Shown here in pieces: positions 2,015 through 62,414 of a stretch of DNA of 64,000 nt. The position numbers and the translations under genes are program-made. The notes below the pieces were generated by a model. The model ran no database searches, had not been told where the DNA came from, and saw only the letters and a list, made by a program, of their open reading frames with translations. Source of the stretch: a virus (Duplodnaviria > Caudoviricetes); the IMG/VR virus record IMGVR_UViG_3300014205_000014, positions 16,168 to 80,167 of that record; one strand, given 5' to 3'. The stretch's first letter is position 1, and each line of letters starts with the position of its first letter.

Positions 2015-2030
2015 ACAGAGTTGAATATGT
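2015..2030. promoter_or_regulatory. 16-bp operator
   Basis: ACAGA GTTGAA TATGT, after TATAAT 1997. Confidence 0.75.
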
Positions 2031-2064
2031 GTTTGAGAATAGGTCTTATCGGAAAGGATGAAAC

Positions 2065-2487
2065 ATGATATGCCCAAAGTGCAATATTGAAATGAGACAA
2101 ACTTACGAGCCATACGAGCATCGCTGCTCAAAATGCGGCTATTGGTTTGATGACTGGACGGGTAAGGAGATCAATCCCAGTGAAGCTGCTGAGAAATACG
2201 GCAAACATCTTCAGAATCAAGAACTCACCAAAAAGGTAAACGACATCCGGCGCATTATCGAAATGAATGAGATTGTCCACATTGACACAACCACAGACGA
2301 TAAATGGGTTTGGTTTAGTTTTTTCAATGATGAAAACAACCATGAGCCATACCAAATTAAGAAAATTGCACGCGATACCGTATGGAACATGGATTGGAGT
2401 CTTGCCGCGCTACTCATTATGAACGCGCCGGGTGAGCCAATTGCGAAGCCTATTGAGATAGTTAATCCATTACCTTTTGACGAATAG
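2065..2487 (+). CDS. Hypothetical protein with N-terminal Zn ribbon
   Basis: CPKC...CSKC; GGAAAGGA RBS. Confidence 0.6.
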   Translation: MICPKCNIEMRQTYEPYEHRCSKCGYWFDDWTGKEINPSEAAEKYGKHLQNQELTKKVNDIRRIIEMNEIVHIDTTTDDKWVWFSFFNDENNHEPYQIKKIARDTVWNMDWSLAALLIMNAPGEPIAKPIEIVNPLPFDE

Positions 2488-2534
2488 GTTCGCACCGCAG
2501 AATAAAGATTGTCAGTAGCAAGAGGGAGGAACAA

Positions 2535-2813
2535 ATGCCAGATTACAACTCCATTTTCCAATCACTTCTGATACTTCAAGAGGAAACCTACCCCAACGCC
2601 TATGATGAGGTTGACGTGCAACTCTTGAAGCAACTGAACACAGCGTTTTGGGTGATTACGCGAGATCGGGACACACGGCTCAAGTTGATGGGCGAAGTCG
2701 TTGGGCGCACGTTGAAATCGACGTATGACCTGACAGTGGGCGAAGCCCATGCCCTGCTCAAACTGTGCGATCAACCCACATTTATTGCAGCAATGAAAGG
2801 AGAGACACAATGA
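2535..2813 (+). CDS. Hypothetical protein
   Basis: GAGGGAGG RBS, operon context. Confidence 0.6.
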   Translation: MPDYNSIFQSLLILQEETYPNAYDEVDVQLLKQLNTAFWVITRDRDTRLKLMGEVVGRTLKSTYDLTVGEAHALLKLCDQPTFIAAMKGETQ

Positions 2814-3157
2814 AATTTACCAATAACCCTTTCGAGGAATTTATCGACCAACTGGACATCGACGGAACGTCTACGCTCGACTGCCCTACCATCCATCCAG
2901 CGGTGGAGAAGGTGCTATGGGAGTTGGAAGATGCGAAGGACTTTGAAACTTTATGGCATCAGCGGCTAACAGACTTGCAACGGGTCGAGCGCCACTGTCT
3001 TGCTACTGAACTGAAAGCCAGTCTCATGGACTACCTACCCGTGCAGGTGTACAAAGTCGCTGAGCCGGAACTGCAACAACTGCTGCTGTATGTCATCAGC
3101 GCGGCGTGGTTGGTACACAGTGAAATCGAAAAACAGTTTGGAGGGACTCGTGAATAA
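2810..3157 (+). CDS. Hypothetical protein
   Basis: ATGA overlap with upstream gene, AAGGAG RBS. Confidence 0.55.
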   Translation: MKFTNNPFEEFIDQLDIDGTSTLDCPTIHPAVEKVLWELEDAKDFETLWHQRLTDLQRVERHCLATELKASLMDYLPVQVYKVAEPELQQLLLYVISAAWLVHSEIEKQFGGTRE

Positions 3158-3968
3158 GCAACTTAAACTCAATAAAGATGGTTCAGTTAAGGGACGTGGC
3201 ATAGAATGGGCTGATTTTACGTGGAATCCTATAGCCGGTTGTTTTCACGCCTGCCAATGGCAAATGCCCGATGGCACGATTGCCAACTGCTACGCCGAAG
3301 ATGTTGCGGATCGTGTTGCCGGTGGTGCATACCCACACGGGTTTGAACATAACTATTGGAAACCCGCCCTGCTGAAAGAACCGATCAATCAAAAGAAACC
3401 CTCACGTATATTCGTGGGAAGCATGGCGGACGTGTTCGGACATTGGGTTGAGAAAGATCATATTCTGCAAGTGCTGAATGTTTGTGAACGTGCTCCACAG
3501 CATACATTCCAATTCCTGACTAAAAATATCAAGCGGGTATGGGAATTTGTAGGGGTTATTCCCTCGAACTGTTGGATTGGAGCCAGCACACCACCGAACT
3601 TCATGTGGAACAAGCCGCTTTCAGAGGGGCAGCGCGAACGGTGGCTCGACACAACATTAAGCACACTAAATGCTTTGCATGAAACGGGTATTACTACTTG
3701 GTTATCCGCCGAACCCATCACAATTGATGTTGGGTTTTATATTACAACTGAGTTCGATAAGAAACCAATTGACTGGATGGTGATCGGCGCTGCAAGTAAT
3801 GGAAATAAACTCTACGCACCGGATGAGAAGTTTGTTAAACGTGCGGTAAAAGCCAATGATGATTTTGGAATTGCAACTTTCTTCAAGGGCAATCTCAAAA
3901 CATCACCTTTTGCAGCAGCCAATTGGCGTGAAGAGTATCCTAAGGTGAAAGTAGCCGTTCATGAGTAA
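3150..3968 (+). CDS. DUF5131 (phage Gp37/Gp68) radical-SAM-like protein
   Basis: IEWADFTWNPIAGC...C...NCYAE, IFVGSMADVF, HTFQFLTK, SAEP, DWMVIGAAS. Confidence 0.85.
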   Translation: MNKQLKLNKDGSVKGRGIEWADFTWNPIAGCFHACQWQMPDGTIANCYAEDVADRVAGGAYPHGFEHNYWKPALLKEPINQKKPSRIFVGSMADVFGHWVEKDHILQVLNVCERAPQHTFQFLTKNIKRVWEFVGVIPSNCWIGASTPPNFMWNKPLSEGQRERWLDTTLSTLNALHETGITTWLSAEPITIDVGFYITTEFDKKPIDWMVIGAASNGNKLYAPDEKFVKRAVKANDDFGIATFFKGNLKTSPFAAANWREEYPKVKVAVHE

Positions 3969-4332
3969 TCAAGAAAGCATCGAAACCCGCGACTACCGCA
4001 ACACCCAACGGGCAAGCGCCTTTGTCCGTAAGGACAATCGCTGTGATCTATGCGGTGGTCGGGCAAATAGTCTCCATGAAATTTTATTCCGGTCTAGTAC
4101 CCTGAACAATGAGGAAGCGCGGAGGTTATCCTTTCAAGAACCGCTGTTGGCTATCCTATGCCCTACCTGCCACGATAAGGCACACAATCCTGAAACGAGC
4201 GCACGACTGCTGATGCAAAACGCAAAGATATACGGACATCAGGCAGTCAACGAAGCGCTACAGGCGGTGCGGACCGTGTTGAAAGGTAGATTAGGTGTAG
4301 CATTAGTTGAGGAGGAAGAAACCGATGGCTAA
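3961..4332 (+). CDS. HNH/His-Me finger Zn-binding nuclease-like protein
   Basis: CDLC...HEILFRS...LCPTCHDKAH. Confidence 0.6.
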   Translation: MSNQESIETRDYRNTQRASAFVRKDNRCDLCGGRANSLHEILFRSSTLNNEEARRLSFQEPLLAILCPTCHDKAHNPETSARLLMQNAKIYGHQAVNEALQAVRTVLKGRLGVALVEEEETDG

Positions 4333-60905: not shown

Positions 60906-61051
60906 CCCAGCGGTGAAGAGTTTTTAACTATGCGAAACAAGTAGGATTTGAGAGAAAAATGTGGTACAATAGAAGGCATATAAATGCAAACGAGCGCTTG
61001 ATGCAACTAACATCTGCGCCCGTTCTAACCGTTGAAAGGTGTATGCTTTCT

Positions 61052-61993
61052 ATGGCTACCTCAGATTCTACCACACATTGTATCTACCGTATCGTCTGTG
61101 TTGCTAATGGCAAAGTCTACATTGGGCAAAGTATAAATGCTCGTGAAAGACGAATGCATCATTTTTCAAAGTTAAGAACTAATCAACACTACAATTTCCA
61201 TCTACAAAAATCCTTCAACAAATATGGTGAAGGTATGTTCTACTTTGAAACATTGGAGAAGAATATCCCGCATTCTAAAATAGATGAACGTGAGATATTT
61301 TGGATAGCACATTTTAACAGTCACCTTAACGGATTTAACGCTACAGCAGGAGGTCATAACCACCCAAATGGGATCGTAAAATGTGAATGGAATGGGGTCG
61401 AATACGCAAGCAGAGCGGAGTGTGAAAAAGCAACAGGTATCCCTGTATCTGCATTAAGGTATCGCATGAGCCAAGGGTATTCGTCGGACAAAGATATGGA
61501 TAATAGAGGTAAGAAATTCACTTGGAATGGCAGAAACTACAAGTCCTTAGAAGAAGGTGCTAAGGAATTGGGAATATCACTGTCAGCAATGCATGATCGT
61601 TTAAGGAAAGGTTATAGAAACGATTCTGATATGCAAAACTCAAGCTATCGGAAAGAAAAAGGATGTGAATGGAATGGTGTATTCTATGATTCGATTTCCC
61701 ATATGGCTAAAGCATTGGCACTTGATTATTCATGTGCATTCTACCGAGTACATGAGGGGATGAAGAAAGACAGTGATATACGTAAAGCAGTTCACCCATC
61801 CAAGAAATGTGAATGGAATGGAAAAACATATTTATCTATTGCGGCGGCGGCAAGCGAATTAGGAATATCTCATGCTACGATGCGTTATAGATTGAAGTCT
61901 GGATATAAATCAGACAGCGATATGAACATAAAATCAAATACAAGAAGGAGAACCGAATATGGCAGGCAAACAAGTCCTAACACTAGTGGGTAA
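61052..61993 (+). CDS. GIY-YIG homing endonuclease with four NUMOD1-like HTH repeats
   Basis: CIYRI...NGKVYIGQS..R, E..WI..FNS..NGFN; 4x (K/G)xxWNG..Y.S...A...G....YR...G...D.D. Confidence 0.9.
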   Translation: MATSDSTTHCIYRIVCVANGKVYIGQSINARERRMHHFSKLRTNQHYNFHLQKSFNKYGEGMFYFETLEKNIPHSKIDEREIFWIAHFNSHLNGFNATAGGHNHPNGIVKCEWNGVEYASRAECEKATGIPVSALRYRMSQGYSSDKDMDNRGKKFTWNGRNYKSLEEGAKELGISLSAMHDRLRKGYRNDSDMQNSSYRKEKGCEWNGVFYDSISHMAKALALDYSCAFYRVHEGMKKDSDIRKAVHPSKKCEWNGKTYLSIAAAASELGISHATMRYRLKSGYKSDSDMNIKSNTRRRTEYGRQTSPNTSG

Positions 61994-62357
61994 TTTAGGG
62001 AAAGATAGTGAAATGCGCTATACACAGGCGGGGAAAGCTCTCTGCTCGTTCAATGTAGCTGTATCTGAAACATGGACTGATCGAAACTCAAACGAGAAGC
62101 GCGAAAAGACCGTGTGGCATAAATGCACGATCTGGGGTGAACTCAGCGAGAAATTATCTCCCTATCTCGTTAAAGGTAAACAGGTCTACATCAGTGGCAC
62201 AGTTGAGGCTCATGCATATCTCGATAATGCAGGGCAACCAGCAGCCTCATTAGAAGTAAATGTACGCGACATTCTTTTACTCGGTGGCAAGGGTGAAGGT
62301 AATCACGCCGATGAACCCGCCCCCACAGACTTCTCAAAGAGCGACATACCTTTTTAA
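61959..62357 (+). CDS. ssb: Single-stranded DNA-binding protein
   Basis: LVGNLGKDSEMRYT, SFNVAV, WHKCTIWG, YLVKGKQVYISG, C-term SDIPF. Confidence 0.95.
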   Translation: MAGKQVLTLVGNLGKDSEMRYTQAGKALCSFNVAVSETWTDRNSNEKREKTVWHKCTIWGELSEKLSPYLVKGKQVYISGTVEAHAYLDNAGQPAASLEVNVRDILLLGGKGEGNHADEPAPTDFSKSDIPF

Positions 62358-62371
62358 CGATTGAACCGTAC

Positions 62372-62396
62372 AGGGGTGCTTCATTGCGCCCCTTTG
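62372..62396 (+). terminator. Possible intrinsic terminator after ssb
   Basis: GGGGTGC-TTCATT-GCGCCCC-TTT. Confidence 0.5.
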
Positions 62397-62398
62397 AG

Positions 62399-62414
62399 AC
62401 AGAACCGAATATGT
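62399..62414. promoter_or_regulatory. 16-bp operator
   Basis: ACAGA ACCGAA TATGT. Confidence 0.75.

Follow-up and report, generated by a model that had tools for sequence, protein, structure and literature searches.

A dispersed 16-bp pseudo-palindromic motif predicted to be a genome-wide regulator site in an orphan podovirus-like phage

What is a 16-bp sequence for, when it recurs beside genes of nearly every kind in a single phage genome? The question is raised by a 64-kb stretch of DNA (hereafter the window), bases 16168-80167 of the 80,167-bp virus record IMGVR_UViG_3300014205_000014, whose ends overlap. The element in question is the pattern RCAKANNNNNNTMTGY (RCAKA-N6-TMTGY), which a first-pass annotation, made from the letters alone, had read as a symmetric operator through which one dimeric repressor silences all stages of the phage programme. 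We analysed its occurrence, anatomy, placement and possible binder computationally; coordinates are those of the window unless a genome position is named. The explanation we favour, to which we give about an even chance, is that the repeats are double-stranded-DNA sites of one regulator, serving mainly as operators and roadblocks in the manner of mycobacteriophage stoperators or the C1 operators of phage P1. This regulator is most likely encoded by the phage.

Results

Occurrence of the motif

The pattern has 23 matches in the window, against a mean of 1.16 and a maximum of 4 in 100 dinucleotide-preserving shuffles, none of which (0/100) reached the observed count. The motif is non-random. The whole record holds 30 exact matches, and the full 16-position pattern RCAKARYYRAMTMTGY, with up to two mismatches allowed, gives 50 strand-matches where 7.4 are expected. 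All 21 exact sites of the first-pass annotation were recovered at their positions, but two exact matches had been overlooked (31388 and 48830). Its four near matches (30427, 34834, 41689 and 56328) are genuine, with one or two mismatches each, and are among the eight further near matches returned by a position-weight matrix built from 29 sites. Our additions to the near matches are 37461 and, on weaker grounds, 61947. The working set used below comprises 37 sites, with near matches included and the odd-spacer match at 48830 left out; 27 of the 37 lie in the window (Table 1).

Anatomy and orientation of the site

The oriented consensus is RCAGARCCGAMTATGY, flanked by AAAW at positions -4 to -1 and RTTT at +17 to +20. 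Six positions are invariant in 29/29 sites (C2, A3, A5, T12, T14 and G15); they are mutually complementary and form a dyad, and the flanks mirror each other, being A-rich upstream and R-T-T-T downstream. The geometry is 5-N6-5, with half-site centres 11 bp apart. A distance of 11 bp is about one helical turn and is typical of helix-turn-helix dimers. The spacer is conserved too, as had been proposed, with positions 6-11 reading R-C/T-C-G-A-M in 20-26 of the 29 oriented sites, and the motif is indeed distinct from the Gram-positive LexA box GAAC-N4-GTTC, since its symmetric variants read GAAC-N2-GTTC.

The proposed symmetry did not survive closer inspection. The half-sites are unlike: the left one reads RCAGARCC and the right one, on the opposite strand, RCATAKTC (the complement of GAMTATGY). 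Positions 6 and 11 are non-complementary in 26/29 sites and positions 7 and 10 in 22/29, and all five outer pairs are complementary in only eight of the 29. The motif is thus pseudo-symmetric and has a preferred direction. When each site was compared with the transcription of its local gene arm, 23 ran with it, 4 against it and 10 were too symmetric to orient (binomial p = 3e-4). This asymmetry, together with co-orientation of 23 of the 27 asymmetric sites, brings the motif closer to stoperators than the first-pass annotation had held. A monomer with two domains would account for unlike half-sites and a preferred direction just as well as a dimer would.

Folded as RNA, the 20-mers are slightly more stable than shuffles (mean -2.26 vs -1.02 kcal/mol). 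We nevertheless rejected a hairpin or RNA stem, because positions 4 and 13 show no compensatory change: their combinations (G-C 9, G-A 17, T-A 3 and T-C 0) match independent variation, and 17 of the 29 sites carry a G.A mismatch. Recognition of double-stranded DNA by a protein would instead be expected to leave just such a dyad, in which half-site variants are tolerated and the A/T flanks are symmetric.

Placement relative to genes

The genome is organised in two gene arms that diverge at ~52,700-53,480, a non-coding, low-GC stretch, and converge at ~14,100-14,220. The + arm carries small unknown genes and genes for SSB, a clamp-like protein, a DnaD-like initiator, a primase-helicase, a RecA-like protein and a methyltransferase, as well as a ParM-like gene followed by a possible ParR. 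The - arm encodes a tailspike-like protein, the portal, a head protein, an SU10-type adaptor, large tail proteins and sugar and methyl transferases. Sites occur on both arms and, as the first-pass annotation had noted, front replication, structural and RNA units, to which we add homing-endonuclease units. They are concentrated outside genes: 27/37 lie in, or at most 12 nt from, intergenic gaps, which make up 9,871 of 80,167 nt (12%), and a site is present in 26 of the 61 gaps that measure 16 nt or more. Among the ten non-gap sites, 13213 and genome 13428 each overlap a gene's final codons and a third, genome 12551, lies 21 nt 5' of an in-frame ATG with a Shine-Dalgarno sequence.

Placement relative to promoters

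Transcription starts were inferred from -10-like hexamers alone, a hexamer being accepted with at least five of six matches including A2 and T6, and controls were matched random positions in 3000 sets. Sigma-70-like promoters with two hexamers showed no overall enrichment. With -10-like hexamers, 22 of the 37 sites fall into one of three registers, and counts as high as those observed were reached in at most 1 of 3000 random sets.

In register i the hexamer begins 6-22 nt upstream of the motif start, which puts the motif centre at about +1 to +17 (10/37 sites vs 2.8 in controls); this register holds three copies of an 18-nt promoter cassette, TATAATGAGTTCTAAGAG, followed by the motif. In register ii the hexamer adjoins the 3' end of the motif, which fills -28 to -13 (7/37 vs 0.7), and at genome positions 30271, 55993, 65276 and 26046 the motif's last T or its own TG serves as the TG of an extended -10 element. 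In register iii the hexamer lies 19-20 nt past the motif end (35-36 nt from its first base), with the motif centred near -40.5 (5/37 vs 0.3). No -35 match accompanies register iii, and two of its five sites have their own TGn extended -10. Over all registers the motif centre spans about -40 to +17 relative to the -10 element. Such variation of operator position within the polymerase footprint is a usual mark of steric repression.

Among promoter-like sites of the first 20 kb, the best (TTGACA-18-TATACT) has the motif as its spacer. It is followed by a 15-pair terminator-like hairpin with a T-run (14184-14218), so that 14096-14220 forms a small-RNA-like unit where the arms converge. Three - arm sites come after a second promoter-like repeat, TTGACTTTnnnnACAnTTTTACTTTAnG. 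The earlier view that sites lie in promoter spacers or just past the -10 element holds for those that adjoin such elements (10/37 downstream of them and 7/37 abutting), but 15/37 have no recognisable promoter and five are centred near -40.5, an activator-like position. Several of the promoter-less sites are squeezed between a stop codon 1-5 nt upstream and a start codon 16-25 nt downstream, which leaves no room for a promoter.

Homing endonucleases and module joints

Six HNH_3 genes are present in the record, five of them with NUMOD4 and the sixth with AP2, alongside single GIY-YIG and T5orf172 genes. Every one of the six HNH_3 genes has a site 21-107 nt upstream, for which the chance is about 0.6% given that 26/61 gaps are occupied. 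Three of them use register iii, and three or four also carry a site at, or just beyond, their stop codon. The HNH cassettes at genome 9417 and genome 73526 (window 57359) are homologous, sharing the motif, 20 nt, TGnTAnAAT and a leader with CATCTAAATACAAAC; both cassettes (genome 9417-9537 and window 57359-57481) also have a GC-rich hairpin in the leader. These shared cassettes suggest that an endonuclease gene and its control region travel as one.

Diverged relatives were found as short contigs from two wastewater runs of one study, and about 20 kb could be compared. In these relatives a joint, 45870->48224, has both ends inside sites, and the tailspike module is absent or replaced. This module consists of a beta-helix tailspike-like gene (630 aa) and a 133-aa gene, and is bracketed here by two 28-nt promoter-like repeats, each with a site. 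At another joint, 48278->49168, the relatives have no HNH gene and a single site, ACATATTCAGTTCTGT, which retains the motif with an altered spacer, compared with the two sites that flank HNH gene 48302-49039 here. In total, 3/16 joint endpoints (45870, 48224 and 48278) fall inside sites, although sites cover only ~1% of the 20 kb examined, so that sites also appear to mark where modules begin and end. The clustering of endpoints could partly reflect the motif being the only conserved intergenic anchor for alignments. Eight of the 37 sites belong to three repeat groups sharing more than ~24 bp, and the HNH cassette pair would add two.

A candidate binder

Called open reading frames (ORFs) were searched with 158 Pfam and 119 PHROG queries. 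We regard an 80-aa predicted winged-helix protein as a candidate binder, as a lead only. Language-model and structure look-up assign it winged helices of the HTH_11/IclR type (scores 0.90-0.92; query TM 0.67-0.74), and it has 13 relatives among 1.84 billion representatives, mostly of 78-86 aa; one of 10 members of its family matches HTH_11 at 1e-5. An AlphaFold model built from 10 sequences (pLDDT 90.4) has a layout of three helices, a wing and a C-terminal helix, and its top Foldseek matches among solved structures, all of them weak (E ~0.05-0.2, query TM ~0.5-0.7), are to the DNA-binding domains of IclR, ArgR, ArsR and GntR regulators. The sole tie between protein and motif is a consensus site 25 nt past the stop codon of the gene. 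A 424-aa relative matches the 80-aa protein in four stretches, and tandem arrays of the small domain occur elsewhere.

A 189-aa helix-turn-helix (HTH) protein was considered as the main repressor candidate and dropped, as it resembles small-terminase or phBC6A51-type HTH proteins. Its gene (genome 3907-4476) is the only robust opposite-strand gene, is conserved in two relatives and is divergent from an early promoter with a site. Proteins of 796, 596, 189 and 80 aa gave no significant sequence match to solved structures.

Relatives and host

The phage represents an orphan podovirus-like lineage (by its SU10-adaptor match) with no cultured relative. A collection of 50,697 phage records gave no match by DNA, portal or winged-helix protein, and the portal, a 456-aa protein and a capsid-like protein, as single queries, found no relatives among viral contigs. 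An alignment of the 456-aa protein found four viral contigs (29-41% identity) that share only that gene and pieces of endonucleases; no further protein of the structural arm has relatives on viral contigs elsewhere. The motif is not enriched in these four contigs, which contain 0, 0, 1 and 2 pattern sites.

The exact 16-mer has nine single matches in viral contigs, and the motif followed by GTTT has 2 + 2 unrelated single matches in genome and metagenome contigs. In 185,579 species genomes (596 billion bases), where ~280 matches are expected by chance, the matches listed are scattered singles. One gammaproteobacterial metagenome-assembled genome holds at least five exact 16-mers, all within copies of one repeated mobile element with identical flanks; we rejected it as a regulon or host lead, the recurrence being a coincidence of a single repeated element.

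Other features of the window

A ParM-like actin-family gene (ALP_N 5e-5; PHROG partition protein 1e-29) and a small downstream gene, possibly with a ribbon-helix-helix N-terminus, occupy 11260-12775 and may be a plasmid-partition module. The unit has its own promoter-like site, TTGACA-17-TATCCT (11260-11288), without the motif, and is closed by site 13213. In the - arm, the 456-aa protein (37345-38715, - strand) stands where a terminase might be expected; it has conserved NEP and EFG motifs and is glycoside-hydrolase-like. Across the whole record we recognised neither a terminase large subunit nor a DNA polymerase.

Degenerate CA/TA-rich repeats (ACACACATAC, CATAGGCGA and similar) fill the non-coding stretch at 52700-53480, which may be an origin or genome-end region; relatives show several insertions, deletions and joints there (53192->53381 and 53378->53469). 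A 75-nt tRNA gene (49417-49491, + strand) lies inside the - arm, downstream of the promoter-like site at 49132-49161. Its anticodon is UCA, which reads UGA; ARAGORN labels it SeC and the Rfam tRNA score is 50.6 bits. No recoding is evident, because the long ORFs of the phage are open under code 11.

Table 1. Motif sites and associated features, in window coordinates (strand:. for sites given no direction).
Feature	Position	Strand	Context
Site ACAGAGTTGAATATGT	2015..2030	+	directly 3' of 18-nt promoter cassette TATAATGAGTTCTAAGAG (1997-2014), one of 3 copies; 34 nt ahead of gene 2065-2487
Site GCAGAACCGACTATGT	5300..5315	+	within 3' part of RecA-like gene
Site	9879..9894	+	3 nt past stop of Clp-protease-like gene; -10-like TATCAT begins 2 nt downstream
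Site, nearly symmetric	13213..13228	.	overlaps last codons of T5orf172 gene; next start codon 18 nt on; end of ParM-like/ParR-like unit
Site	14104..14119	+	fills 18-nt spacer of sigma-70-like promoter (TTGACA at 14096, TATACT ending 14125)
Consensus site	19421..19436	-	5 nt downstream of TTGACG-18-TACTAT (- strand)
Site	24107..24122	-	1 nt past stop, 19 nt ahead of start codon; no promoter seen
Near match GGAGAACCGATTCTGT	30427..30442	.	
Exact site, consensus spacer	31388..31403	-	within glycosyltransferase gene; overlooked in first-pass annotation
Near match	34834..34849	.	between major-head-like and scaffold-position genes
Site	37264..37279	-	directly after TATAAT and diverged copy of 28-nt promoter-like repeat (37287 region)
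Near match	37461..37476	-	within 456-aa glycoside-hydrolase-like gene
Site	39826..39841	+	opposes arm; on - strand, TATAAT after 2 nt, then Shine-Dalgarno and ATG of 65-aa ORF
Near match	41689..41704	.	
Site	45861..45876	-	5 nt past promoter-like repeat TTGACTTTTGGGACAATTTTACTTTAGG; one end of relatives' 45870->48224 joint
Site	48214..48229	.	11 nt past second 28-nt repeat copy; other end of 45870->48224 joint
Site	48276..48291	+	10 nt past stop of HNH gene 48302-49039; opposes arm; start of 48278->49168 joint
Exact match, spacer AATTTC	48830..48845	.	within HNH gene; non-consensus spacer; probably a chance match outside the system
Site	49109..49124	-	between divergent promoters; TTATAAT adjoins on - strand, towards HNH gene
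Promoter-like site TTGACA-18-TATGCT	49132-49161	+	beside site 49109, towards tRNA 49417-49491
Site	50588..50603	-	16 nt ahead of ATG of small - strand gene
Site	52177..52192	+	3 nt past TAAAAT -10 (- strand); 17 nt before ATG of gene 51341-52159
Site, first of + arm	53487..53502	+	after hairpin GTCGGAATTCCGAC; Shine-Dalgarno-to-ATG stretch like that of site 62399
Site	54734..54749	.	2 nt past stop codon; next gene 87 nt away
Near match ACAGAACCGACTATCT	56328..56343	+	18 nt past stop codon
80-aa winged-helix protein (predicted)	57091..57333	+	only candidate binder found; lead only
Consensus site	57359..57374	+	TGcTATAAT 20 nt downstream; centre near -40.5; in promoter cassette of HNH gene 57482-58057, homologous to genome 9417 cassette
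Site	59240..59255	+	TATACT 19 nt downstream (centre ~ -40); precedes gene 59315-59602
Site	59675..59690	+	2 nt past third, 3-mismatch copy of 18-nt cassette (TACAATGAGTTCTAGGAA, 59655-59672)
Consensus site	62399..62414	+	after hairpin following SSB gene; 25 nt before ATG of gene 62440-62946

Discussion

Several features together point to a double-stranded-DNA site for one regulator: a dyad whose flanks are symmetric too, no covariation of the kind a stem would show, concentration of the sites in non-coding DNA, and tight registers beside -10 elements. A mainly negative, genome-wide role is suggested by sites at nearly all kinds of unit, by their variable positions within the polymerase footprint and by co-oriented boundary sites without promoters. 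The regulator could be a dimer able to accept two variants of the half-site, or else a protein in which two related DNA-binding domains are joined. At most host-type (-10 or extended -10) phage promoters its sites would fall within the footprint of RNA polymerase, with others at gene or operon boundaries. Bound at promoter-overlapping sites the protein would block initiation, and at promoter-less intergenic sites it may block elongation, so that one protein could keep both genome arms silent. The silenced state might be a plasmid prophage, a possibility raised by the ParM/ParR-like pair, which has its own promoter without a site.

Several observations weigh against this explanation. Among the scanned ORFs, the Pfam and PHROG searches returned neither a repressor-like, Cro/CI-like or stoperator-domain protein nor an integrase, a recombinase or any other direct sign of lysogeny; the earlier claim that one repressor silences all stages is for this reason kept here as a proposal. 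The portal has no match in 72,556 plasmids or in the species genomes, and with no prophage or plasmid relative found, lysogeny is unsupported apart from the ParM-like gene. The asymmetry and co-orientation of the sites weaken the simple picture of a single homodimer. Orientation could, moreover, be passively inherited, because some sites travel in duplicated cassettes, and the arms coincide with GC skew, which makes orientation with transcription inseparable from orientation with replication. As for promoters, the register p-values are optimistic and post hoc because the windows were chosen after the histogram had been seen, register iii occupies an activator-typical position, and 15/37 sites have no -10-like element in any of the three registers.

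These points leave room for other explanations. A dual or mainly positive regulator of the lytic programme, acting as a temporal switch and not as an immunity repressor, is in our view unlikely. Such a protein would recruit RNA polymerase from near -40.5 to -35-less promoters, including those of homing-endonuclease cassettes, and would repress where its sites lie over early promoters. A centre near -40.5 or -41.5 is the class II activator position of CRP and FNR, and it is here that register iii (5/37 sites vs 0.3) is centred; its promoters have no -35, two have a TGn extended -10, all six HNH_3 genes have a site upstream (three in register iii), and the ParM-like gene is the only sign of lysogeny. 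However, 17 of the 22 promoter-associated sites lie over or past the -10 element, positions at which binding normally means repression, a further 15 sites lack a nearby promoter, no activator-like or CRP-like protein was found among the scanned phage ORFs, and the register comprises just five sites picked post hoc. We consider it very unlikely that the sites belong to a host regulator and were copied by the phage to couple its programme to a host signal. There are precedents for phages with many host-regulator sites, such as the Spo0A boxes of phi29 and the LexA boxes of several prophages, and this origin would agree with finding no classical repressor in the phage ORFs. Yet the motif fits none of the consensus sequences to which we compared it (Gram-positive and E. 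coli LexA, NrdR, CRP and parS), and in species genomes the exact 16-mer shows a chance-like scatter among the matches listed, bar one mobile element.

The joints raise the question of whether the repeats are mainly a portable junction or recombination sequence, carried in small promoter cassettes and only secondarily regulatory, to which we give a slim chance. Such cassettes would travel with homing-endonuclease and other accessory genes and would mediate the exchange of modules, like the PeSL cassettes of T4-type phages. This role would account for the 3/16 joint endpoints inside sites covering ~1% of 20 kb, for the tailspike module lying between two copies of 28-nt repeat plus site, for the two sites around HNH 48302-49039 where relatives have one, and for the motif, -10 and leader that the two HNH cassettes (genome 9417 and 73526) have in common; PeSLs are described in PMC4122927 as composite motifs of promoter and terminator located at points of exchange. 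But only 8/37 sites are in long-repeat groups (plus two with the HNH cassette pair), the dyad and fixed -10 registers indicate recognition by a protein, and alignment breaks may hit the motif merely as the only conserved intergenic sequence; a junction role is, besides, compatible with the regulator-site explanation. An RNA element, either a processing site or a translational operator just upstream of ribosome-binding sites, would explain why sites follow the direction of transcription, why at least 10 sites end 16-25 nt ahead of a start codon and why the 20-mers fold slightly better than shuffles. We think it extremely unlikely in view of the uncompensated positions 4/13 with their G.A mismatch in 17/29 sites, the flanks that mirror each other as in a DNA dyad, the sites in promoter spacers or upstream of a -10 that would not be transcribed with the following gene, the four inverted sites, and the sites after stop codons far from the next gene (87 nt at 54734). 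Equally little credence can be given to a promoter of a phage-encoded RNA polymerase or sigma factor. A long, conserved and oriented sequence before many genes, sometimes straight after hairpins (57359 and 62399), is what such a promoter would look like, but no RNA polymerase or sigma domain was found in the scanned ORFs (the 796-aa and 596-aa proteins being without a solved-structure match), dyad symmetry is unexpected, the motif stands in three different registers beside host-type -10 hexamers, and several sites are inverted or inside genes.

Among known systems, the closest parallels to a regulator-site network are the stoperators of cluster A mycobacteriophages and the operators of P1. Cluster A stoperators number more than 20 dispersed sites in promoters and short intergenic spaces, with an orientation that tracks transcription (PMC9283540). 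Like those of L5 gp71 and the TipsytheTRex repressor, the sites described here are dispersed (37, of which 27 in gaps and 22 beside -10-like hexamers) and follow transcription (23/27 asymmetric sites). Stoperators are asymmetric 13-mers without a dyad, read by a monomer with an HTH and a stoperator domain, in contrast to the 16-bp pseudo-palindrome seen here; the lineage is also unrelated, no integrase was found in it, and it yielded no gp71-type repressor homologue in family and structure-sequence searches, although a very distant homologue is possible. P1, which lives as a plasmid, has 22 C1 operators of 17 bp dispersed over its genome (PMC8546580). Sites are dispersed in the present phage as well, and it has a partition-type ParM-like gene; the C1 consensus ATTGCTCTAATAAATTT, however, lacks any symmetry and bears no relation in sequence to the motif, family searches gave no C1-like protein, and a plasmid state is hinted at here by the ParM-like gene alone, the portal being without a match in 72,556 plasmids. 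We conclude that the motif belongs to neither the stoperator nor the P1 family, given its different site type and the failure to find a homologue of either repressor, but that it plausibly works like these networks.

Other comparisons are less close. The ~17-bp inverted repeats (CIRs) of phiC31 are repressor-bound at many intergenic places; sequence, phage and host differ from those considered here. Classical dimeric HTH operators of the lambda/434 type share the 5-N6-5 dyad and mirror-image flanks, imperfectly here (perfect arms in 8/29), but no Cro/CI-type gene was found among the phage ORFs (no HTH_3 or Cro-CI match at E <= 0.1) and the sites are dispersed, not clustered. Class II sites of CRP and FNR are similar in their 5-N6-5 geometry and in a centre near -41, where the motif would lie at the five sites before -35-less -10 elements; they differ in the half-site (TGTGA, vs ACAKA here), the phage ORFs have no cNMP_binding or HTH_Crp match and hence no Crp-type protein, and most sites are at repressing positions. 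T4-type PeSLs are short, repeated regulatory elements on either side of variable genes, where exchange takes place (PMC4122927). They resemble the motif in that sites flank accessory genes and joints of relatives fall inside sites, but they combine a promoter with a stem-loop terminator in early hyperplastic regions, unlike a 16-24-bp dyad core without a stable stem that occurs on both arms.

Well-documented genome-wide operator networks are confined to a few phage groups (cluster A mycobacteriophages, P1 and phiC31), and this would be, if true, a further and unrelated example. The cis-map of 37 sites and three -10 registers is unusually clean and makes the control logic of an otherwise unannotatable phage testable. 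If the regulator proves to be an ordinary repressor, the result would be a tidy and unsurprising annotation; less expected is that sites are tied to homing-endonuclease cassettes and to the joints of modules. Should modules and these cassettes indeed be exchanged at the sites, gene regulation would be linked to mosaic evolution. A more specific picture, which we find decidedly unlikely, is an independently arisen, stoperator-like, orientation-dependent silencing network in an orphan podovirus-like lineage, with a 16-bp pseudo-dyad read by a small winged-helix protein, a possible plasmid prophage, and a site that is portable in six homing-endonuclease cassettes and marks module exchange points. 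Were it true, selfish genes and accessory modules would join a phage-wide regulon by bringing or capturing a site.

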